Part shown: positions 659 to 15,213 of the stretch, one piece after another | Numbering within the stretch: position 1 is the stretch's first letter | Layout of the letters: each line of letters begins with the position of its first letter | Assembly: GCA_964644695.1 (NCBI GenBank) | Contig: CAZXWN010000004.1 | Span: 124,001 to 168,824, forward strand | Length of the DNA stretch: 44,824 bases | Direction: 5' to 3' | Source of the DNA: an uncultured bacterium | GTDB lineage: Bacteria > UBP4 > UBA4092 | The notes under the pieces: model-generated | Seen by the model: only the letters and a program-made list of their open reading frames with translations | What the model was told of the DNA's origin: nothing | Databases searched by the model: none | Position numbers and translations under genes: made by a program

Positions 659-1225
659 TCAGGGTGCTACCATACGAAACCAATCTCTTATTACTTGCTT
701 TATACGTGCGTGCTCCTCATCACTGATGACTGACATATGACATATATTATTACGTAGATGCGAAATATGCTTTGCCTCTTCTATAAGAGACTTATCTCTC
801 ACACTTTCGGCAAAATAGTCTTTCCATAATGCATTCATAATAGCTACCAATTGACTATATGTCAGTAAACGCTCTTTTTCTCTGCCTGTTATTGCCATCC
901 AACTCTTCTGATTTTCTATAGTTTCACTTTTACGAATGTCATCAATAATATTTTCTGGTATTATTTTCCACCATTCGTTCTTTGCTTTTGATGACAATTC
1001 TGCAACAACAAACTCACGCAAATAATTCTCAAAAACAAAAAAAAGTTTATATGATTCCGCAGCCTTTGTAGCATCGCGAACACTGTCCGGTAATAATTCA
1101 GCTAAATTAATTGTATTGGAAAGATAAAGGGGTATATCGTTTGTAACATTTACATCTTCAGATATTTTTTTATTAGCTATTTGGCCTAAAGTCAAAAACA
1201 GTGCCAGTTTTTCGGCATTAATCAT
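659..1225 (-). CDS. Swt1-like HEPN domain protein (putative RNase effector)
   Basis: Pattern YxLFFVFENYLREFV...WW...LTYSQLVAIM...W..YF, plus an intact HEPN Rx4H motif (RNNICH). Confidence 0.75.
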   Translation of the reverse strand: MINAEKLALFLTLGQIANKKISEDVNVTNDIPLYLSNTINLAELLPDSVRDATKAAESYKLFFVFENYLREFVVAELSSKAKNEWWKIIPENIIDDIRKSETIENQKSWMAITGREKERLLTYSQLVAIMNALWKDYFAESVRDKSLIEEAKHISHLRNNICHMSVISDEEHARIKQVIRDWFRMVAP

Positions 1226-1824
1226 TTAAATACCTTTCGGATTGCACTAAAAATATTCAAATATGTTTCTTCTGAACAATTGCTTGGCAAATGTACCTGA
1301 ATGTTAAAGTGAAAGTCCGTTGTAAATCCATCGTTGCTAGGAGCAACGGCCAATTTATCAGCAAACACCTCATCCCTTTCTTCTTCCTCTTTATCGCTGT
1401 TGTACGAAAAGTCTGCCAATGGTACTAAGGCCTTAAAAGTCCCTAGTATTTTGCTTACTTGGGCACTATCTCCACCGCTAACTTGTGAAACAATACCCTT
1501 CATTTCCTCATTACCTAGAACATGTATATTTTCATTAGCTGCATATAAATCTCTGTATGCTTCCTTTATAGCGTCAGCCATCACTTTTCTAGAAGCAGTA
1601 TCATTTTTGTATAATTTATATCTTTCCGTTGGCTTACTTGTAGTATCCAAGAACCCTAACGATCGCAAAAGTGAAATCAATGCTCTATCCGCAGTGCTTT
1701 TAAGCCCTATGGTATGGGATAAAAATTTATGAGTAAAAGCATCCGGAATCTTTGCTGATTTCATTTTTTGGAACAAAGCACCGACATTTTTATATGATGG
1801 TAGGTATGGAATTTCGTTTTTCAT
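1222..1824 (-). CDS. DUF5343-like protein
   Basis: N-terminal PYLPSY...PDAFTHKFL..TIGLKS..DR.LI.LL.SLGFLD...PTERY and C-terminal FHFNIQVHLP...Y..IF..I. ATGA overlap with the HEPN gene. Confidence 0.7.
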   Translation of the reverse strand: MKNEIPYLPSYKNVGALFQKMKSAKIPDAFTHKFLSHTIGLKSTADRALISLLRSLGFLDTTSKPTERYKLYKNDTASRKVMADAIKEAYRDLYAANENIHVLGNEEMKGIVSQVSGGDSAQVSKILGTFKALVPLADFSYNSDKEEEERDEVFADKLAVAPSNDGFTTDFHFNIQVHLPSNCSEETYLNIFSAIRKVFK

Positions 1825-4484: not shown

Positions 4485-6314
4485 TTATTCGACGGTAACG
4501 GACTTAGCCAGGTTTCTGGGCTGATCAACATCACAGCCGCGTTTAACCGCGACATGATAGGAGAACAGCTGAAGCGGGATCTGAACCAGAATCGGTGAGA
4601 CGAACTCTTCACACTTCGGAATATAGATGACGGATTCGGCATGAGCCTTGATGTTTTCGTCACCTTCGGTAGCCACAGCCACGATACGACCGTTTCTGGC
4701 GCGGATTTCCTGAATGTTGGAGACCATCTTGTCATACACCGCAGACTGGGTGCAGACGCAGATAACCGGGAGACTATCATCCACGAGGGCAATCGGACCG
4801 TGCTTCATTTCGCCGGCGGCATACCCTTCAGCATGAATGTAAGAAATTTCTTTCAGTTTCAGAGCACCTTCGAGGGCGCTTGGATAGTTATAGGAACGAC
4901 CGAGATACAGGGCACTGGTGGCCTTGTAATACTTGTCGGTGCAATCCAGAATGGACTGCTGGTCTGCCAATTGGGCCTTGACCTGTTCGGGTAACTGACG
5001 AAGAGCAGCAATCATGTTCTTCCGGGTCTCCGCAGAAAGTGTACCACGGATGGCACCCAGATACAGGGTGAAGAGAATGAATGCTGTTACCTGTGAGGTA
5101 TAAGCTTTGGTAGAAGCAACGCCAATTTCCGGGCCGGCATTGGTGTAAATGACACCGTCTGAGTCACGGGCGATTGAGGAACCCACGACATTACAGATAG
5201 ACACGACTTTGGAGCCGCAGCGTTTGGCTTCACGGAGACCCGCCAGTGTATCAGCGGTTTCACCCGACTGAGTAACGGTCATGACGAGAGTGTCTTTGTC
5301 CACCATCGGGCTGCGATAACGGAATTCAGAGGCCAGATCCACTTCAACCGGGATACGGACAAACTGTTCCAACAGATAACGGCCGACCATACCAGCGTGG
5401 TAAGCAGTACCACAGGAGATAATGACGATTTTCTTGATGGACTTTAATTCAGCATCAGACATCTTCATATCTTCAAGCTGAATGCTGTCGAAGTCTTTGG
5501 AGAAACGGCCCAGGAGGGTGTTGGCAATAACGGTGGGCTGTTCGTTGATTTCTTTGAGCATGAAGTGGGGATATCCACCCTTTTCGGCGGCATTGGCATC
5601 CCAATCAATGTAATGTTCTTCCTTTTGGAGAACATTGCCATTGAGGTCAGTCACTACGACTTTGTCGCGAGTCAGGGTAATAACTTCATGTTCATCCAGG
5701 TAAATGACCCGGCGGGTATATTTCAGGATGGCGGGAACATCGGAACCAATGAAGTTTTCACCGTCACCAAGACCGATAATCAATGGGCTACCACAACGGG
5801 CGGCCACGAGTTTATCCGGCTCATCAACGCACATGACGCCAAGAGCATATGCACCTTCTACTTCTTTCAGGGCGTTGCGGACAGCTTCTTCGAGGTTACC
5901 TTTGTAATGTTTACCCACCAAATGGGCAGCCACTTCAGTGTCAGTCTGGGATTTGAAGACATGACCTTCCGCCAGCATCTGGGCTTTGAGGGACTGGTAA
6001 TTTTCGATGATACCGTTGTGGACAACCACGATTTTTCCGGAGTTGTCAGCATGGGGGTGAGAATTTACTTCAGAGGGGATACCATGTGTGGCCCAACGAG
6101 TGTGTCCAATCCCGCAACTTCCCGGAATAGGCTCTTCAGCCAGGCTCTGATCTAACACTTTCAGCTTGCCGACTCTTTTACGAACGACCAGTTTGCCATC
6201 AGAAATGACAGCCACACCGGCTGAGTCATACCCACGATATTCAAGACGATGTAAACCGTCCATAATAATCGGAGTCGCATCGGTTTTACCGATATATCCA
6301 ACAATTCCGCACAT
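4485..6314 (-). CDS. glmS: Glutamine-fructose-6-phosphate aminotransferase
   Basis: MCGIVG start, GHTRWATHG, SQSGET-like TQSGET, and C-terminal DQPRNLAKSVTVE. Confidence 0.99.
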   Translation of the reverse strand: MCGIVGYIGKTDATPIIMDGLHRLEYRGYDSAGVAVISDGKLVVRKRVGKLKVLDQSLAEEPIPGSCGIGHTRWATHGIPSEVNSHPHADNSGKIVVVHNGIIENYQSLKAQMLAEGHVFKSQTDTEVAAHLVGKHYKGNLEEAVRNALKEVEGAYALGVMCVDEPDKLVAARCGSPLIIGLGDGENFIGSDVPAILKYTRRVIYLDEHEVITLTRDKVVVTDLNGNVLQKEEHYIDWDANAAEKGGYPHFMLKEINEQPTVIANTLLGRFSKDFDSIQLEDMKMSDAELKSIKKIVIISCGTAYHAGMVGRYLLEQFVRIPVEVDLASEFRYRSPMVDKDTLVMTVTQSGETADTLAGLREAKRCGSKVVSICNVVGSSIARDSDGVIYTNAGPEIGVASTKAYTSQVTAFILFTLYLGAIRGTLSAETRKNMIAALRQLPEQVKAQLADQQSILDCTDKYYKATSALYLGRSYNYPSALEGALKLKEISYIHAEGYAAGEMKHGPIALVDDSLPVICVCTQSAVYDKMVSNIQEIRARNGRIVAVATEGDENIKAHAESVIYIPKCEEFVSPILVQIPLQLFSYHVAVKRGCDVDQPRNLAKSVTVE

Positions 6315-6466: not shown

Positions 6467-7381
6467 TCAGGGGTTTATGTAGGTGCTTCGAGGGATATCC
6501 ATGTCCTCAGAAACGGTTATAAACTCACTAAGTTCAACAGGAACGGTTGTTCCACCATTCAATCCGGCATCCACCCATGCTGTGTACCACAGGGATGCGA
6601 CATCAATGGCTGACTGATTCAACAGTGTTGTGGTAAAGCTCTGGGTACTGGCCCATAGAAGAGAATAGTAGGTATTACTTGAGGTCGATCCTGCCGATTT
6701 CTGAGCCGAAGTATCGGCAGCCGTGATCAGAGGATAATAAGGATAATTGGCACTGAGAAGACTGAAACAAAACTCCAGTTGGTTAGACCTGTAGATGGCA
6801 CCTGACCCTGATGTACTGGAAATGCTGGGGGTATATTTGGTAATCATTGTGGTTTCGTAACGGCTGTGGACCCCATTCGCATTGTAATTTTTGGTCAAAT
6901 GCATCGGCTGGCTTAAGTCCGCTGTGTAATGTGATACGCGGGTCATCCAATACATGGCAGTCGTCAAATTGGATGGGGTAGGATTGGCCTTCCAGGTCCG
7001 TAATGACTCAGTAAACTTCTGATTCACGGATACGACTGCAAATAAACAATACCCACTGGAGACAGTGTATTTGGCGAGATAGTCAGTATAGTTTCTTGGG
7101 AAAATCGTAAATGGCCACTGAATCGCAGAATTTGCATCACCGTCCTGAAAATGAAAGTAAGACTCATTGGCATCCCAGTTCGTCCGAACCCCATTATCCG
7201 TACTGGTATCAGCTAACCATTGTTTATATGGCCGAAATACTGTCGCCATACTCACCGGAAGATTTTCAATCGCGTTACTGGTGATCCGGGTGTGGCAATA
7301 ATCTCCCCAGGCTAACGCCAGGGAAGTTAATAAAAGAAAGCTTATTATAAGAGAAGCTCTGAATGGCTTAATGTTTTTCAT
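6467..7381 (-). CDS. Secreted S1/P1 nuclease / Zn-dependent phospholipase C fold protein
   Basis: Signal peptide ending ALA, mature N-terminus WGDYCH, then HYTADLSQPMH and HSRYE zinc-ligand motifs. C-terminal VPVELSEF tail. Confidence 0.75.
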   Translation of the reverse strand: MKNIKPFRASLIISFLLLTSLALAWGDYCHTRITSNAIENLPVSMATVFRPYKQWLADTSTDNGVRTNWDANESYFHFQDGDANSAIQWPFTIFPRNYTDYLAKYTVSSGYCLFAVVSVNQKFTESLRTWKANPTPSNLTTAMYWMTRVSHYTADLSQPMHLTKNYNANGVHSRYETTMITKYTPSISSTSGSGAIYRSNQLEFCFSLLSANYPYYPLITAADTSAQKSAGSTSSNTYYSLLWASTQSFTTTLLNQSAIDVASLWYTAWVDAGLNGGTTVPVELSEFITVSEDMDIPRSTYINP

Positions 7382-7469: not shown

Positions 7470-8207
7470 TTAATCCAGACCGAGGTCTTGTGCCGCCTCA
7501 GAAGCAATGATCATGGTTGTTTTGGGGTGCAGTTGAAGAATAGAAGCCGGTACTTGGGGATGCACCGGACCGCCGATAGCATTAAAGACAGCTTCCGCTT
7601 TGTCGGGAGTATTTGCCAGGAGGATAATCTCCCGTGCTTTCATGATGGTCCCCATCCCAACCGACAGGGCATGAGTCGGGACCTTGGATAAATCGTCCTC
7701 AAAGAATCGGGCGTTCGCTTTTCGAGTATCTTCCTTCAAACCTGCCAGGTGAGTCCAGGGTTCAAAGGCCTCTCCCGGTTCATTAAATCCAATGTGCCCA
7801 TTACGGCCGATGCCTAATATCTGGACATCAATTCCGCCCACATCAGCCATCTTCTTTTCATATTTTTCGCATTCAGCCATGACGTCAGATGCCTGGCCAT
7901 CGAGAATATTGATGTTCTCCTCGCGGAAATTTACATTGGAGAAAAAGTTCTCATACATAAAATAGTGGTAACTCTGAGGATGGTCCGGGGATAGCCCAAC
8001 ATATTCATCCAGATTAAATGTCGTTACTTTAGAAAAATCCAACCGCAGACTGGACTGCATCTGGGTCAATTCATAATACATACCCAGAGGAGTTGAACCG
8101 GTCGCAAGCCCTAGTACTAAATCAGGTTTAACGATGATGTGGGCAGCCACCAATAAGGCTGCTCTCTGGGACATTTCCTGGTAATCCGCGGTAACAACAA
8201 TCTGCAT
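7470..8207 (-). CDS. nagB: Glucosamine-6-phosphate deaminase
   Basis: Motifs LGLATGSTP, TFNLDEY and GIGRNGHIGFNEPG. Confidence 0.97.
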   Translation of the reverse strand: MQIVVTADYQEMSQRAALLVAAHIIVKPDLVLGLATGSTPLGMYYELTQMQSSLRLDFSKVTTFNLDEYVGLSPDHPQSYHYFMYENFFSNVNFREENINILDGQASDVMAECEKYEKKMADVGGIDVQILGIGRNGHIGFNEPGEAFEPWTHLAGLKEDTRKANARFFEDDLSKVPTHALSVGMGTIMKAREIILLANTPDKAEAVFNAIGGPVHPQVPASILQLHPKTTMIIASEAAQDLGLD

Positions 8208-8219
8208 AATAAAAGTGTC

Positions 8220-9389
8220 CTAGGCCTGGAACTGGACTTTTCCTTCCACCATGGTGTACTGCACTTTGAAGTCCTCATCAAACAGGACAATATCAGCATC
8301 CTTACCAACTTCAAGGGTGCCCTTACGATGTTCCAGACCCAATTCAATGGCAGGATTTAATGAGGCACAATGGATGGCTTCCACCATGTCCAAACCAGCA
8401 AACTTCATCAGGTTATTAATTCCATTATTCATCAGGAGGGTAGAACCAGCTAATGTGTTGGTGTTATTTAGATAGGTCTCACCATTACGGACATTTAATG
8501 TATACCCAAGTTTGGCATCCTGTACATATTCACCATCCGGTAAACCTGCGGTCTGAATGGCATCTGTAATCGGAATAACTTTCCGTAAAGGTTTGGCCCG
8601 AACCAGGATTTTAACAACTTCAGGATGGACATGAACCCCATCCGTAATAATTTCAGCAGCAACTGAATCACACGCCAAAGCGGCACCGACTGTTCCCGGA
8701 TGACGATGGGATAGGACCGACATGGCATTAAAGGTGTGAGTTGCATGGCTGACACCCGCGTTTACACCTGCCATTGCCTGTTCATAAGTAGCATCCGTAT
8801 GGCCCATGGAGGCAATAATATTCCGCTTCACAAGCATTTCGATCAGGGGAATCGCACCATCAATTTCGGGTGCAATGGTCATCTGTTTCAGATATCCACT
8901 GGAAGCGTCTATGAGGCTCTGTAAAGTTTCCGGAGCACATTTCCAAATATGTTCAGGATACTGGGCTCCCCGTTTCTCCATACACAAATAAGGTCCCTCA
9001 ATATGAATACCCAGAGGTTTGGTTCCCGGCAGGCCCTCATCAAACAGGTTGGCCAGTTTTTTGAGAATCTCGGTATCAGCATGAACTGTCGGTAGATATC
9101 CCGTCACTCCATGTGCCGCATAACATTTACCCATGGCTTCAAGAGCTTCACGGGAAGCATCAGCAGACTTGTAGTTCATACAGCCATGTACATGGACATC
9201 TATGAACCCAGGTGAAATGTACTGACCAGAAACATCAATGATTTCAGCATCGGCCGGGAATGAACTGGCATTCATAAATCCCAGGTGCTCAATTTTTGAG
9301 CCCTTCACCATCAGATAAAACCCTGTATCCAGGACTTCCGTCGGTGTAATGATTTGGCCGTTAATGAATATTTTTCTCTGTTCAGACAT
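8220..9389 (-). CDS. nagA: N-acetylglucosamine-6-phosphate deacetylase
   Basis: Motifs PGFIDVHVHG, HIEGPY, THTFNAM, DGVHVHP and LAGS. Confidence 0.97.
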   Translation of the reverse strand: MSEQRKIFINGQIITPTEVLDTGFYLMVKGSKIEHLGFMNASSFPADAEIIDVSGQYISPGFIDVHVHGCMNYKSADASREALEAMGKCYAAHGVTGYLPTVHADTEILKKLANLFDEGLPGTKPLGIHIEGPYLCMEKRGAQYPEHIWKCAPETLQSLIDASSGYLKQMTIAPEIDGAIPLIEMLVKRNIIASMGHTDATYEQAMAGVNAGVSHATHTFNAMSVLSHRHPGTVGAALACDSVAAEIITDGVHVHPEVVKILVRAKPLRKVIPITDAIQTAGLPDGEYVQDAKLGYTLNVRNGETYLNNTNTLAGSTLLMNNGINNLMKFAGLDMVEAIHCASLNPAIELGLEHRKGTLEVGKDADIVLFDEDFKVQYTMVEGKVQFQA

Positions 9390-9520
9390 AATGAGATAAA
9401 CCTCTCGGTTAATTGAGATTAAACCTTTTTATTTGTTGATTTTCCCTATTTTACCATAGCCAACAGACAATGGATTGCCACCGGAAGTTGTAAATAAGTT
9501 ACAGGGGCGAAAAACCATAT

Positions 9521-9559
9521 AAAAGAAAAGGCCGGAAGTGTGGGATGGGCACTTCCGGC
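9521..9559 (-). terminator. Rho-independent terminator ending the candidate sRNA
   Basis: 10-bp stem GCCGGAAGTG/CACTTCCGGC followed by a U-tract on the minus strand. Confidence 0.75.
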
Positions 9560-9714
9560 GCCTAGCTCGGCATTGGGGGACCGAGCTAATTGCCTGCTGG
9601 AGGGCATTGCAGGCAGCCTCTGCAGGGCTGCAGAGGTGGGGTATCTTATTTTTTCAAGGGCATGAGTTAAGAAACTGGCGAATTATTTAATTCTGGTGCG
9701 TTCTTAAACCTCAT
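9521..9714 (-). ncRNA. Candidate structured small RNA (~190 nt, five hairpins, C-rich loops)
   Basis: Own sigma70 promoter, four back-to-back perfect GC stems within 9531-9636, a bulged 5' stem, and a final hairpin followed by CUUUUCUUUU. Confidence 0.6.
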
Positions 9715-9720
9715 AATAAT

Positions 9721-9749
9721 AGTATATCTTATAGCAATTAGAATAACAA
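9721..9749 (-). promoter_or_regulatory. Sigma70 promoter for the candidate sRNA
   Basis: TTGTTA (9749-9744), 17-nt spacer, TATACT (9726-9721). Predicted start near A at 9714. Confidence 0.6.
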
Positions 9750-9782
9750 CACTATTTTTTGATAAAAATTCACTTTTTTCCC

Positions 9783-10973
9783 CTATTTTACGAGTTTAAC
9801 CGGACCAGAATAGGGGGTGATTAAAAGTATGATATTGAGATTATCGTACTTAGCGTTTTCCTGTGGATTCGATTCATCTACTACCATAATTCGACGAATA
9901 TCCTCATTGACCATGGTGGTACCTGATTCAACCTGGGCATTGTTAATGCTCACGGAATAGGCCACCGTTGATCCTTTAATGGGGATGACTCCATCCACAT
10001 TGTAGGTCAATATAACATTAGGTTTCCCTTCAAAATCCGCTTTTTTAGCAACAAAGCGATACAGGAATCCGGCATCTTCACCACGAACGGTCATCATATA
10101 TCCAGTCGTCCCATTACTGACGGATTGTTTTTCAGTGTATTGATACCGTAATCCATCACGGAACCGAACTTCTTCGTTGGGAGTCACATTGACCCGCTTA
10201 CGAGATAACAAATCAGCTTTCCCAAACTTCGAAAGCCATTCCATCAACTTCTGAATATCCACATTCTTCAATGAGACAAATGATTCTGGATTATCTTTGG
10301 ATAAATAGGGACAGGTCGCCCAGTCAATCCCTGCGGAATGCTTCTCATCCAAATCCAGAGTAACCACACTACAATCCAAACCTAACTGGGTTCTGTTTTT
10401 AAGAGCATCTTCCAACTGAGCAACCACTTTTTTAATAGCTTCCACATTGGATTGTGTATCGGTCACAATAATACTATTAGTTCGGGTATCCACGGTCATT
10501 GTGCCGCCACTACTTCCCGCACGAGTAACCATTCGAACTAATTCTGTTGCATCCGCATATTTCACTGGGATAATGGCAGTTTCCAGGGCAATATCCACAG
10601 CAGCAATCAACGATTTGGCGAGATCAACCTGTCCACGGGTCCCGGACAGAATCATTAAATTACTGCGCATATCACCGGTCACTTCCATACTTGGGAAGGA
10701 GACCCGCACCAAATTAACAATATCCGAAACACGGGCATTTTTGATAGGAACAAATTCGGTAATCCGAACGGGTTCCTTCGTAACTTCCGATGTAACTGGA
10801 ACAGGTGCCGTCACCGCGGGAGACTCTGTCGTATTGACTACCGGAGGAGCGGCAGGAGCCGGAGTTTCCTGGGCCAAAGATAGAGAGCTGAGCCCCATCC
10901 CTGCCAACATTATAATTGTGACTAAGGCCACACTGAATCGTTTGAGTTTTGGCATAAATGTATTTATCTCCAT
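9783..10973 (-). CDS. Short, divergent secretin-like protein (two Secretin_N domains plus degenerate secretin core)
   Basis: Signal peptide, Pro-rich linker, two repeats of the type IPVKYADA...VDTRTNSIIV.D, then QL.LD..VV.LD.....GIDW and C-terminal IILLITP. Confidence 0.7.
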   Translation of the reverse strand: MEINTFMPKLKRFSVALVTIIMLAGMGLSSLSLAQETPAPAAPPVVNTTESPAVTAPVPVTSEVTKEPVRITEFVPIKNARVSDIVNLVRVSFPSMEVTGDMRSNLMILSGTRGQVDLAKSLIAAVDIALETAIIPVKYADATELVRMVTRAGSSGGTMTVDTRTNSIIVTDTQSNVEAIKKVVAQLEDALKNRTQLGLDCSVVTLDLDEKHSAGIDWATCPYLSKDNPESFVSLKNVDIQKLMEWLSKFGKADLLSRKRVNVTPNEEVRFRDGLRYQYTEKQSVSNGTTGYMMTVRGEDAGFLYRFVAKKADFEGKPNVILTYNVDGVIPIKGSTVAYSVSINNAQVESGTTMVNEDIRRIMVVDESNPQENAKYDNLNIILLITPYSGPVKLVK

Positions 10974-10992
10974 TATTTCTTACAGACCCGAA

Positions 10993-11763
10993 TTAATAAG
11001 AGGGTTCTGCATAACTGGCATTTGCGAAAGTCACATCTAATTCTTTTTTAACTGCATTGATAGTGTGATCCACATTAAACCTGGCTTCCCAGATATCTCG
11101 AGTGGGTTCGCTTTTCGCAGAAGATTCCACAGAAGATTTTTCATCGGATGAATTACCCGAATCGTTCATGGGAAATACGGGTGCCGGTTCAAAATTAGCG
11201 GCATTGGCCACATAAATAACCTTGGGTTTCACGACAACTTTTTCAGAAACAGGTTTGGAGGCTGAGGCAACCTGGTTATCCAGATATTTAACAACTTCCT
11301 CTTTCTGAACCACGGGAACTTCCAGAGTCTGTGTTTCCAGCTTCACAATCTTACTGGATACTCGTAAATCAGGATTCATCAGGATACTGCCCAGAAAGAT
11401 GCCCCCTATGAATAAACCGAGAGAATAGGACAACCGTAAGGCCGATGAATGCGGATTCAACATCCGGTGAAAACCATAATCAATAGTCATCCAGATTTCC
11501 TGCCACCAATAAACTTTCGGGGCGGCCAGGTGGGCTTCAATCTCCTGCCAGGTCTTTTGCCACTGATATTCCGAAGGATACTCAATTTCTTCTTCCTGGA
11601 ATAAACGGGACATCTTTAATAAGGCACTGTATTCCTCACTACAGATGGGACAATGGTCCAGATGATCCCGAACCTCATCAGCAGCAGACCCATTCAGGTC
11701 TCCATCCAGATAGTCCTGGAGTAAGTCCAGGCACTTTTGGCATTTTAATTGGTCAGAAGTCAT
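10993..11763 (-). CDS. Membrane-anchored zinc-finger (zf-HC2) anti-sigma factor
   Basis: C..C..LL.DYLDG.L...HLDHCPIC motif, one transmembrane helix, directly downstream of an ECF sigma gene. Confidence 0.85.
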   Translation of the reverse strand: MTSDQLKCQKCLDLLQDYLDGDLNGSAADEVRDHLDHCPICSEEYSALLKMSRLFQEEEIEYPSEYQWQKTWQEIEAHLAAPKVYWWQEIWMTIDYGFHRMLNPHSSALRLSYSLGLFIGGIFLGSILMNPDLRVSSKIVKLETQTLEVPVVQKEEVVKYLDNQVASASKPVSEKVVVKPKVIYVANAANFEPAPVFPMNDSGNSSDEKSSVESSAKSEPTRDIWEARFNVDHTINAVKKELDVTFANASYAEPSY

Positions 11764-11765
11764 GG

Positions 11766-12407
11766 TTAATACTCCTTCAAGACATCTTTCAACGCCAGGC
11801 GTAGAGAATATCGTGCGCGGTGTAAATGGGTTTTAACGGTTCCCTCGGTACATCCGAGGACATCGGCTATTTCTTTTACTTTCATACTTTCCAGTTCAAA
11901 CATGGTAAAACAGGCTTTTTGTTGTTCCGGCAATTCACTGACGGCTTCCCGAATAACCTGATTAAGTTCTTTCCGGGCCACCAGGACATCAGCACCCACC
12001 AGAGCTAAATCCGGACGGGTATCCGAAGGGCCTTCTTCACCATCATAGGACTTATCCAGGGGTTCAGTGCGATGACGACCCTTTTTTCCCATATAGGTCT
12101 GCGCCTCATTAAATACAATAGTGCGCAGCCAGGGATAAAAAGACGGGTACTTGGCATCAAACCGGTGGATATATTTAAAGGCCCGGATAAAAGCGCCCTG
12201 GACCACTTCTTCCGCATCAGCGGGATTGGTTACATAACGATAAGCAAACGCATAAGCACGATTCCGGTATCTCCGAAACAGTTCATTAAACGCTGAATGA
12301 TCACCTTTTTGACACCGGCGGATCAAAGTATGTTCTGATTCTTCCGCCATCACATCCATGCCCGTTTGCAGGGTATTTATTTCCAGGGTTTGATTATAGG
12401 TCAACAT
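11766..12407 (-). CDS. ECF sigma-70 factor
   Basis: Region 2 (AFNELF..Y, DAEEVVQGAF, F.PWL..I) and region 4 (EIADVLGCTEGTVKTHLHRAR). Confidence 0.95.
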   Translation of the reverse strand: MLTYNQTLEINTLQTGMDVMAEESEHTLIRRCQKGDHSAFNELFRRYRNRAYAFAYRYVTNPADAEEVVQGAFIRAFKYIHRFDAKYPSFYPWLRTIVFNEAQTYMGKKGRHRTEPLDKSYDGEEGPSDTRPDLALVGADVLVARKELNQVIREAVSELPEQQKACFTMFELESMKVKEIADVLGCTEGTVKTHLHRARYSLRLALKDVLKEY

Positions 12408-13473: not shown

Positions 13474-13483
13474 AAATATATTA

Positions 13484-14182
13484 TTAAGTATAAGTAACGA
13501 AATACCAGTGGGGCTTAATTTTCTCCAATGTTATGTATCCTGAATATTTTTCTTTTCTTGTTTCCATATAAGCGTTAAATAGTTTATCGTCTGAAGCATA
13601 ATAAACACCACCACGAATACCAGGAAGTCGACCATGTCCTATAAAAAATATGTAGGTAAAGACCTTACCCTCATCAGTTTCTTTACAAAAAAAGATTTGC
13701 CTTGCGATTTTAGGATTAATCTTTCCTTGATAGTAAACAGTACTGACCTCGCCCTTTGGAAAAACAACATATGGCTTTTGATTTACAGTATCATATGCAT
13801 AATTGACGATTTCCTGATATTCCGCATAGTTTTGGTTAAACGTATTGAGTCTTACGGTATCTATATACTCAGTACTGTTATTTAGGATATATCCTAGAGA
13901 ATATACGACAAAAAAAGTAAACGGTAATACCCCCATCACAATCCGTTTTAAAATAAATCCTTTATAGAAGAAAATATGGAAAATTATGTAGAAGAAAGCT
14001 ACTGAGGGGATAACTGCAAAAAGGATGCCACTCAAAAGCATAAAGATAATATCACTTCCATCTGCGCCCGGATAACTATGACTATAATACATTATGGCTT
14101 TCCAACCCACCTCATATAAAAGCACATTTATAGCCATTAAGATAATGGGTATCGCTATCTGATTGCGTCGCCAATCAATCAT
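13484..14182 (-). CDS. Hypothetical membrane protein, tandem paralog copy 1
   Basis: Three TM helices plus a domain ending GGVYYASDD...KIKPHWYF. Confidence 0.7.
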   Translation of the reverse strand: MIDWRRNQIAIPIILMAINVLLYEVGWKAIMYYSHSYPGADGSDIIFMLLSGILFAVIPSVAFFYIIFHIFFYKGFILKRIVMGVLPFTFFVVYSLGYILNNSTEYIDTVRLNTFNQNYAEYQEIVNYAYDTVNQKPYVVFPKGEVSTVYYQGKINPKIARQIFFCKETDEGKVFTYIFFIGHGRLPGIRGGVYYASDDKLFNAYMETRKEKYSGYITLEKIKPHWYFVTYT

Positions 14183-14184
14183 AA

Positions 14185-14310
14185 TTATTCTTTCTGCCCC
14201 TCATCGTTGAATAACCATCTATTCTTCTTAAATCGTTCCCAATCAATGAAATCCCAATCATAATATCCGTTTACAGACAACAAACAATCAACCTTTTTGG
14301 ATAATTTCAC
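14185..14310 (-). pseudogene. 41-codon ORF or remnant 3' tail of a lost upstream gene
   Basis: GTG overlaps the stop of copy 2 (GTGA). Translates as MKLSKKVDCLLSVNGYYDWDFIDWERFKKNRWLFNDEGQKE, and stops 2 nt before the ATG of copy 1. The same tail recurs at 15062-15145. Confidence 0.4.
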
Positions 14311-14961
14311 GAATAAGTAACGAAATACCAGTGGGGCTTAATTTTCTCCAATATTATGTATCCTGAATATTTTTCTTTTCTTATTTTCATATAAGCGTTA
14401 AATAGTTCATCGTCTGAAGCATAATAAACACCACCACGACTACCAGGGAGTCGACCATATCCTAAAAAATATATACAGGAGAATGTCTTACCTTCATCAG
14501 TTATTTTCGAAAAAAAGATTTGATTTGCGATTTTAGGATTAATCTTTCCTTGATAGCTATTTCCGTCGGAGTCATCCTTTGGAAAAACAACATCAGGCTT
14601 TTGATTTACAGTATCATATGCATAATTGACGATTTTCTGGTATTCCGCATAATTCTGATTAAACTTATCGAGCCTTACGGTATCTAAATACTCAGTACTA
14701 TTATTTAGAACATATCCTAGGAAATATACGACAAAAAAAGTGAACGGTAATAACCCCATCACAATCCGTTTTAAAATAAATCCTTTATAGAAGAAAATAT
14801 GAAAAATTATGTAGAGAAAATATAATGCAGGGATATTAAGAAAGAAGATACCATTATATGCGACATAGATAAAACTACTTACATCTGCACCCGGATAACT
14901 ATGACCATAATACATTATGGCTTTCCAACCCACCTCATATAAAAGCACATTTATAGCCATT
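14307..14961 (-). CDS. Hypothetical membrane protein, tandem paralog copy 2 (start codon lies in the N gap)
   Basis: Near-identical to 13484-14182 at an offset of 823 nt. The ORF-track start at 15077 is an artefact of reading through Ns. Confidence 0.7.
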
Positions 14962-15061
14962 NNNNNNNNNNNNNNNNNNNNNNNNNNNNNNNNNNNNNNN
15001 NNNNNNNNNNNNNNNNNNNNNNNNNNNNNNNNNNNNNNNNNNNNNNNNNNNNNNNNNNNNN
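14962..15061. other. Assembly gap (100 N)
   Basis: Run of Ns inside the duplicated unit. The equivalent segment in copy 1 is 64 nt. Confidence 1.
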
Positions 15062-15213
15062 ATCGTTGAATAACCATCTATTCTTCTTAAATCGTTCCCA
15101 ATCAATGAAATCCCAACCGTAATATTCGTGAAGGTAAAACAACATAATACCACTTTATGTTTAAACTTCAAACAACCCTCATACTATCCTTTCACAATAT
15201 AAAAGATATCCTT

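Follow-up and report, generated by a model that had tools for sequence, protein, structure and literature searches.

Small regulatory RNAs (sRNAs) that block translation through C-rich single-stranded motifs are described from the Firmicutes and the alphaproteobacteria. The UCCC-motif sRNAs, among them LhrC1-5 of Listeria, RsaE, RNAIII and SprD of S. aureus and FsrA of B. subtilis, are described as G-poor molecules of about 100 nucleotides (nt) with redundant C-rich motifs in a 5' loop, a single strand and the terminator loop, and they bind the Shine-Dalgarno (SD) regions of mRNAs and block translation (PMC4132741). For LhrC, binding of an SD region is reported for loop A as well as for the single strand and the loop of the terminator, and expression is tied to cell-envelope stress (PMC4132741). 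The cuckoo RNAs of alphaproteobacteria (RSs0680/CcsR, SmelC397) are described as two to four adjacent hairpins with a C-rich, anti-SD-like loop motif; their stems vary by compensatory change while the loops are fixed, their neighbourhood is preserved, and an association with Hfq is reported (PMC4615179). Both UCCC and CCUCC loop motifs have precedent in binding SD regions (PMC4132741, PMC4615179). The RNA treated here lies in a stretch of 44,824 nt, called the window below, from an uncultured bacterium (GTDB lineage Bacteria; UBP4; UBA4092; contig CAZXWN010000004.1, positions 124,001 to 168,824), and all coordinates are window positions. Positions 9521-9646 of the minus strand most likely encode a small regulatory RNA that is specific to the lineage and about 125 nt long, or maybe about 195 nt, with an extra 5' hairpin, in this species. 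It is a previously undescribed sRNA family, in no Rfam family, in a barely studied candidate phylum, and by analogy it is best regarded as a new family within a known kind of RNA, the C-rich-loop anti-SD sRNAs.

The intergenic region that holds the RNA is 393 nt long and lies between a gene for a Secretin_N protein (9783-10973) and nagA (8220-9389), both on the minus strand. The conserved core, about 126 nt (9521..9646, minus strand), consists of a C-rich unpaired 5' end, four hairpins and a U-tail. The unpaired 5' segment (9637..9646) carries ACCCCACC, which is common to all four distinct sequences compared and is a candidate 5' seed. Hairpin 1 (9617..9636) has the loop GCCC, replaced by AUCCUC in the other three sequences, and hairpin 2 (9591..9615) an 11-nt loop, AAUGCCCUCCA, that includes CCUCC, the complement of GGAGG. 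Hairpin 3 (9563..9588) has the loop UCCCCCAA(UG), given also as UCCCCCAAUG, and hairpin 4 (9531..9559) the 9-nt loop CCCAUCCCA. Together with the U-tail hairpin 4 spans 9521..9559, an intrinsic-terminator-like 3' end. Upstream of the core, a bulged 5' hairpin appears in the single-sequence fold at about 9662..9714, and a promoter-like TTGTTA-17-TATACT with 9 of 12 matches lies at 9721..9749, both on the minus strand. These structural features had been named in a preliminary description of the DNA, and each of them is present in the sequence at its place. Folding returned the four abutting hairpins and the tail as described there, and the minimum free energy of the minus strand at 9521-9720 was -73.2 kcal/mol, as compared to -43.9 +/- 3.9 for 200 shuffles (z -7.6, no shuffle equal). 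The core folded alone gave z -7.5, and the plus strand z -3.4.

The phylum is represented in the collection searched by five species genomes, 95-100% complete: the window's own genome G000 (3.07 Mb, 98.7% complete), G001 and G002 from the two other genera of its family, and G003 and G004 from a sister family. When 41 genomes, G000 included, were searched at the DNA level, the hairpin part matched G001 (85% identity, E 3e-31) and G002 (73% identity, E 6e-12). The same search gave three matches of 24-28 nt (E 0.003-0.009) between the AT-rich promoter part and unrelated genomes, which we take to be chance. A covariance model built from three sequences found the RNA in three of the five phylum genomes, namely G000 and both other members of its own family, and in neither genome of the sister family. 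The scores were 146 bits for the window, 143 for G001, 133 for G002 and 126 for the metagenome contig L024, and these are the four distinct sequences compared. The exact 21-nt pattern of hairpin 2 and its loop occurs at 10 metagenome and 7 genome loci, four of which are full-length homologues (125.8-146.3 bits): L024, L029 (the G002 locus), L034 (the G001 locus) and L019, a metagenome contig nearly identical to the window and not one of the four distinct sequences. The other 13 of the 17 match the 21-mer alone (17-18 bits) or, in the case of L032, lie in unrelated sequence (18.2 bits). Homologues are found in two other genera of the family and on two metagenome contigs (L019 and L024), and the RNA is shown to be conserved across at least three genera. 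At the syntenic place in the sister family, G004 has a plain terminator hairpin only, and G003 a weak match of 15.9 bits, where a hairpin with a C-rich loop is followed by a terminator hairpin (z -3.4). The G003 element is possibly a reduced relative and was not counted as a homologue.

Folded alone, each of the four distinct sequences forms the same four hairpins (z -6.6 to -9.1). In their alignment 97.7% of 132 cells are paired and 9 of the 33 pairs change on both sides. Neither figure was reached in any of 500 shuffles, and slid controls gave 0-1 such pairs, but related sequences may outscore shuffles even without structure, and with four of them the covariation is good qualitative evidence and no formal test. 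The covariation asked for in the preliminary description is present at this qualitative level. It falls in hairpin 3, where six of eight pairs show two-sided changes and 3 of 16 stem positions are invariant, and in hairpin 4 (three of 11 pairs; 15 of 22 positions invariant). Hairpin 1 never varies (0 of 7 pairs, 14 of 14 positions invariant), and in hairpin 2 a one-sided change affects one of the seven pairs, the other six being constant (12 of 14 positions invariant). Of the loops, loop 2 keeps 10 of its 11 positions unchanged and loop 4 keeps 8 of 9, and all four sequences have CCUCC in the former and UCCC, within CAUCCCA, in the latter. The window and G001 have a C-rich loop 3, and G002 and L024 one of the UUCG type on a longer stem. 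Among the 41-42 unpaired positions of each sequence there are 20-24 C and 2-4 G. The Secretin_N protein encoded next to the RNA is only 43-47% identical between these genera, which implies that the constancy seen in hairpins 1 and 2 and in loops 2 and 4 reflects selection on sequence plus pairing. Judged from the sequences, this is a structured RNA under purifying selection, with four hairpins of which the last one would be a terminator.

Not all that had been noted for the window extends to its relatives. The AAUG motif is present in two loops as described, but it is not conserved, since AAAG replaces it in loop 2 of the other three sequences and two of the four have a loop 3 of the UUCG type. 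The bulged 5' stem does fold in the window, at about 9662-9714, and it is shared with L019 only; in the alignment it is missing from G001, G002 and L024. Three small open reading frames (ORFs) cross the hairpins, 9446-9607 on the minus strand and 9538-9690 and 9540-9665 on the plus strand. They were rejected as coding, because the other three sequences have AAG in place of the loop 2 ATG, and also because of a 2-nt indel between hairpins 1 and 2.

The strand was decided on pairing, ends and fold strength. The antisense strand is 94.7% paired as compared to 97.7% for the sense strand, because four G-U cells become C-A, and the promoter-like sites, the U-tail and the folding scores (z -7.6 versus -3.4) also favour the minus strand, as had been proposed. 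The promoter scan requires a -35 element and scores matches out of 12. In G001 it found TTGACA-17-TATACT (11/12), ending 4 nt before the covariance-model match, and in L024 TAGACA-17-TAAAAT (10/12), ending 2 nt before it, both in sense orientation. In these two sequences the -10 element ends 4-6 nt ahead of the conserved ACCCCACC, so an RNA of about 120-125 nt is expected there, with its start at ACCCCACC or immediately ahead of it. With the window included, three of the four sequences have a sigma-70-like promoter-like site of their own. The sole site of the window that passes the scan lies about 75 nt further upstream than those of G001 and L024. If transcription begins accordingly, near 9714, the RNA would gain the bulged 5' hairpin as an extension specific to the lineage. 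The TTGTTA-17-TATACT sequence is there, with its 9 of 12 matches, but it is alone not significant, as two sites were found in the scanned region and 3.1 are expected in shuffles. A size of about 190 nt, as first suggested, is not family-wide, the conserved core being about 126 nt, but about 195 nt is possible in this species. At the other end, the stem of hairpin 4 is GC-rich and 10-11 bp long, and a U-rich tail follows it in all four sequences (CUUUUCUUUU in the window, UUUUAUUUU in G002, AAUUUAUUU in G001 and UUUGUUAUU in L024), weaker in the last two. Hairpin 4 was missing from the terminator-scan list because its 9-nt loop exceeds the limit of 8 nt used in that scan. Fold, covariation and homologues together support a discrete, conserved and structured minus-strand RNA gene with accessible C-rich loops, a promoter-like site of its own and a putative terminator, and we are confident that it is a real gene and independent of nagA.

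No Rfam 15 family was matched at gathering score in the whole 44.8-kb window. In the region 9300-9900, searched at E up to 10, three noise matches appeared (E 3.4-7.4), all far below the gathering score and none to a cuckoo or alphaproteobacterial sRNA model. A divergent 6S or signal recognition particle RNA was rejected, both being present elsewhere in G000. BLAST gives a single copy of the RNA in G000 (the remaining hits are 14-27 nt long, E >= 2), and so does the covariance model, which also finds one copy each in G001 and G002. This rules out a dispersed palindromic repeat of the REP/MITE type (repetitive extragenic palindrome or miniature inverted-repeat transposable element), one of the outcomes that had been named as refuting the proposal.

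The preliminary description likened the RNA to cuckoo-type and UCCC-type sRNAs, and with regard to the mode of action this is apt, going by the accounts of these groups cited above (PMC4615179, PMC4132741). The RNA resembles the cuckoo RNAs in its four adjacent hairpins, present in all four sequences and within the two to four given for that group (PMC4615179), and also in its C-rich, anti-SD-like loops and its preserved neighbourhood. It differs in that the defining loop motif CCUCCUCCC is absent, with 0 matches to CCTCCTCCC when both strands of the window are scanned, that its loops are unlike one another and two of the four stems never vary, and that its host belongs to a candidate phylum and not to the alphaproteobacteria. 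There is also no Rfam match at gathering score, a search in which no cuckoo-family model was checked by name. Membership in the cuckoo family was rejected on the absent CCUCCUCCC motif and the lack of a model match. With the UCCC-motif sRNAs it shares UCCC in the loop of the terminator hairpin (CAUCCCA) and, in the window, in loop 3, redundant unpaired C-rich motifs on a G-poor RNA, and a place beside a module for an extracytoplasmic function (ECF) sigma factor and its anti-sigma factor. It differs from them in showing no sequence homology (no Rfam match), in being single and not multicopy, in its four hairpins and its phylum, in promoter-like sites that are sigma-70-like and not ECF-like, and in that SD pairing is here only predicted. 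A third type is represented by the sRNAs embedded in the 3' untranslated regions (UTRs) of enterobacterial envelope-stress operons, such as CpxQ from cpxP and MicL within cutC. Like these, the RNA is found where an operon for stress signalling ends, with one terminator for both and maybe an internal promoter, but there is no homology, the ECF-sigma link is here one of synteny only, and processing is putative.

In the reading that we favour, the RNA would act in trans by base pairing with the G-rich SD regions of mRNAs and so occlude them, and to this reading we give roughly half of our belief. The RNA would be made from its own promoter and also as the 3' end of the operon transcript, possibly embedded in the 3' UTR; a dual origin is suggested because no other terminator intervenes. 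The pairing elements would be the 5'-terminal ACCCCACC, loop 2 (GCCCUCCA) and the terminator loop CAUCCCA, all of them conserved, G-poor, C-rich and single-stranded, and hairpin 3 would mainly be a structural spacer. Pairing would block ribosome binding, possibly with Hfq, in the manner of the UCCC-motif sRNAs of Firmicutes and the alphaproteobacterial cuckoo sRNAs. Hfq is present in all five phylum genomes. G000 makes heavy use of canonical SD sequences: among 2401 crudely predicted starts, which also served as start regions in the target work, GGAG begins 370 times at -15..-11, as compared to 18-31 times per 5-nt bin at -60..-26. Of the earlier proposal of a trans-acting translational regulator, the independent and conserved RNA gene with C-rich loops stands, while action on SD sequences is still a prediction.

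Targets were predicted by duplex folding of six accessible segments against the start regions; with the whole sRNA the duplexes had long loops and no meaning. The top predicted targets were unrelated genes with no common function. One of them, a site at T2SSE, was rejected as an artefact of ORF calling, the site lying inside the upstream gene. The gene upstream of the MshEN/T2SSE (PilB-like) ATPase has in G000, G001 and G002 a low-complexity tail rich in Gly/Met or Gly/Pro (L053:1690-1788, minus strand, and L066 and L067), whose G-rich codons yield spurious 'targets' for C-rich sRNA loops.

Several points weigh against the trans-acting, SD-occluding sRNA. No conserved target was found for the RNA: for the two best single-genome hits that were followed into the relatives, a tetratricopeptide repeat (TPR) protein and a hypothetical protein of 193 aa, the queries used returned no orthologue from G001, G002 or G003, and the sites at DUF4760 and DUF3604 genes are not kept in the orthologues. 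Moreover, any CCUCC loop matches any SD, and complementarity alone carries little weight. Loop 3 is without C-rich character in two of the four sequences. The stems of hairpins 1 and 2 are invariant, though those of a pure base-pairing sRNA are expected to covary, and invariant helices fit recognition by a protein at least as well. G002 has no promoter-like site passing the scan beside the RNA. The comparison comprises four distinct sequences, a number to which statistics of the R-scape type are not applicable. Finally, the public runs that hold the locus gave single low-depth contigs only and showed no transcript. Of 13 runs listed, 10 had part of a stretch of 801 nt and none had half of its words; the runs X1-X4, from four studies, gave seven single pieces of 151-204 nt as Logan contigs, at a depth of 2-4.8. 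One contig of 155 nt, in X2, spans 9502-9656, and X2 was flagged as 'probably DNA'.

The invariant helices lead to the main rival explanation, that the RNA is a protein-binding decoy or scaffold, with helices 1 and 2 and the C-rich loops recognised by a KH (K homology) protein of the KhpA/KhpB type or by Hfq, which the RNA would titrate or deliver. We consider this possible, though rather unlikely. The stems of hairpins 1 and 2 are invariant at 26 of 28 positions while hairpins 3 and 4 covary, which points to a constraint on sequence over and above pairing; the RNA bears several C-rich loops that resemble one another, much like the GGA loops of CsrB-type sponges; KhpA-like and KhpB-like genes occur in all five phylum genomes, as does Hfq; and the missing conserved target also fits. 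A preference of KH domains for C-rich RNA is a feature of the eukaryotic poly(C)-binding proteins and would have to hold here too. No protein is linked to the RNA by any of the data, however, one copy with only three conserved C-rich sites is small for a sponge, and the C-rich motifs are the complement of the SD that G000 actually uses. A function in cis seems improbable to us. Here the RNA would be the 3' end of the ECF-sigma operon, terminating its transcript and shielding it from 3' exonucleases with no role in trans. That operon (9783..12407, minus strand) consists by Pfam of an ECF sigma gene (11766-12407), a zf-HC2 anti-sigma gene (10993-11763) and the Secretin_N gene, the last one before the RNA, and it precedes the RNA on the same strand in G000, G001 and G002, all three genomes with a visible upstream gene. 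Scans of the window and G001 gave no terminator-like site on the minus strand between the Secretin_N stop codon and hairpin 4, so operon transcripts probably also end at hairpin 4, and in G003 the hairpin with a C-rich loop and the terminator hairpin stand at the same place. Structure alone would serve for a stabiliser, but the sequence hardly varies in loops 2 and 4 or in the 5' single strand. In G001 the 11/12 promoter lies between gene and RNA, L024 has its 10/12 site before the RNA, and in G002 the RNA lies about 450 nt past the stop codon of the upstream gene.

Two further explanations had been put forward in the preliminary description. One is an attenuating leader for nagA-nagB-glmS, with hairpin 4 as a regulated terminator in this species. 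The RNA is co-directional with nagA, whose start lies 131 nt downstream of it, no sigma-70-like site with both hexamers was found at 9390-9520, and the gene after the syntenic position in G003 is also one for amino-sugar recycling (NamZ). By Pfam the genes downstream are nagA, nagB (7470-8207), an ORF without a Pfam family (6467-7381) and glmS (4485-6314), all on the minus strand, and this order follows the RNA in G000 only. In three of the four contexts the gene downstream is convergent: a GH13 (glycoside hydrolase family 13) amylase in G001, an ORF without a Pfam family and then GH13 in G002, and convergent ORFs in L024. Furthermore, nagA has an extended -10, TGGTAAAAT, at 9448-9456 on the minus strand, about 60 nt upstream of its start codon. 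This element was read directly from the sequence and has no recognisable -35, which is why the promoter scan was silent on it, and it is plausible that it is nagA's own promoter. The convergent and differing downstream genes together with this extended -10 led us to reject the leader as the conserved function, and the synteny largely refutes it. There was also no riboswitch or leader family among the Rfam matches, no glmS ribozyme was found in the window with the Rfam models, and no alternative anti-terminator fold was seen in the ensemble of the window RNA, which the four hairpins dominate; a leader in this species is therefore very improbable. The other explanation, a sponge like CsrB or RsmZ read from the plus strand, we find barely credible. 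The hairpins do stand in a row with the same short loop motif and close with a terminator-like hairpin, as in those sponges, and the plus-strand loops are UGGAGGGCAUU, UGGGAUGGG and CAUUGGGGGA, with GAGGAU in loop 1 of the other three sequences. But it is the C-rich motif that lies on the supported strand, and GGA is found on the plus strand only, where the four G-U cells become C-A, the fold reaches z -3.4 only, and no consistent U-tail follows the last hairpin. CsrA (PF02599) was found in none of the five phylum genomes by a search that was positive in E. coli, B. subtilis and Thermotoga.

Returning to the trans-acting sRNA, a wider reading makes it the fourth component of an envelope-signalling module, with the ECF sigma factor, the anti-sigma factor and the Secretin_N protein, that would reset translation globally during envelope stress. 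We regard this as a long shot. The RNA would be released from the 3' end of the operon when sigma is active, in addition to constitutive synthesis from its own promoter. Helices 1 and 2 and the C-rich loops might then form a multivalent mimic of the 16S anti-SD, or a decoy for the KH-domain proteins KhpA/B, and not act on a single mRNA. Two other C-rich multi-hairpin candidates of G000 would join the same regulatory layer, in a phylum without CsrA. An alignment of the regions upstream of the three sigma genes gave no shared ECF-type motif.

The RNA would be the first structure-supported sRNA family for a candidate phylum with only five species genomes in the collection searched. A search of the literature on this phylum, judged from titles and the openings of abstracts, gave nothing on its RNAs. 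C-rich loops on stacked hairpins, as in Firmicutes and alphaproteobacteria, appear to have arisen or persisted in a very distant lineage, one with strong SD use and Hfq and lacking CsrA. The fixed place behind the ECF-sigma module leads to a hypothesis on regulation that is concrete and can be tested. With more sequences, the RNA would make a good candidate for a new Rfam family. No general principle is changed by it.

The two candidates mentioned above came from a scan of G000, and in DNA comparisons neither proved to be conserved in the four relatives. One (C9:102230-102376, plus strand, the same as L074:1231-1377) follows a gene at the end of its contig, directly behind the stop codon. It has three hairpins with the C-rich loops UUCCCCA, CUCCCCCAAGAUAA and UCCCUUCCCAAG and ends in a GC stem and a U8 tail; UCCCCCAA recurs in it from loop 3 of the window RNA, and it is possibly a 3'-UTR sRNA of the same design. 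The other (C5:46803-46950, plus strand, the same as L075 at about 925-1110) is intergenic, without a DNA match in the four other phylum genomes. By eye it has a promoter-like TTGACT-16-TACAAT, followed by a long hairpin that encloses a small one (loop UUCCCCCAAUC), the single-stranded CCCCCUCCA and a clean terminator. This suggests that the organism uses the C-rich multi-hairpin design repeatedly. G000 also has a dispersed repeat of about 40 nt at many intergenic loci, usually after unstructured C-rich tracts and with several copies near contig ends (for example C10:88265-88553, C13:49364-49440, C13:65730-65916, C19:1717-1856, C19:28636-28841 and C2:30142-30240); it may be the end of a mobile element, a promoter or something else.

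A possible leader RNA of another kind was seen in G003 (L038, about 1090-1270, minus strand). Past the Secretin_N orthologue and its terminator there is, by eye, a near-consensus TTGACA...TATAAT, and after it come three short GC hairpins (loops GAAU, GGA and GUA), ahead of the gene for the exo-N-acetylmuramidase NamZ. The window itself contains a tandem duplication, 13478-14052 and 14301-14875, with a spacing of 823 nt and 85-89% identity, which covers the adjacent paralogous minus-strand ORFs 13484-14182 (no Pfam family) and 14307-15077.

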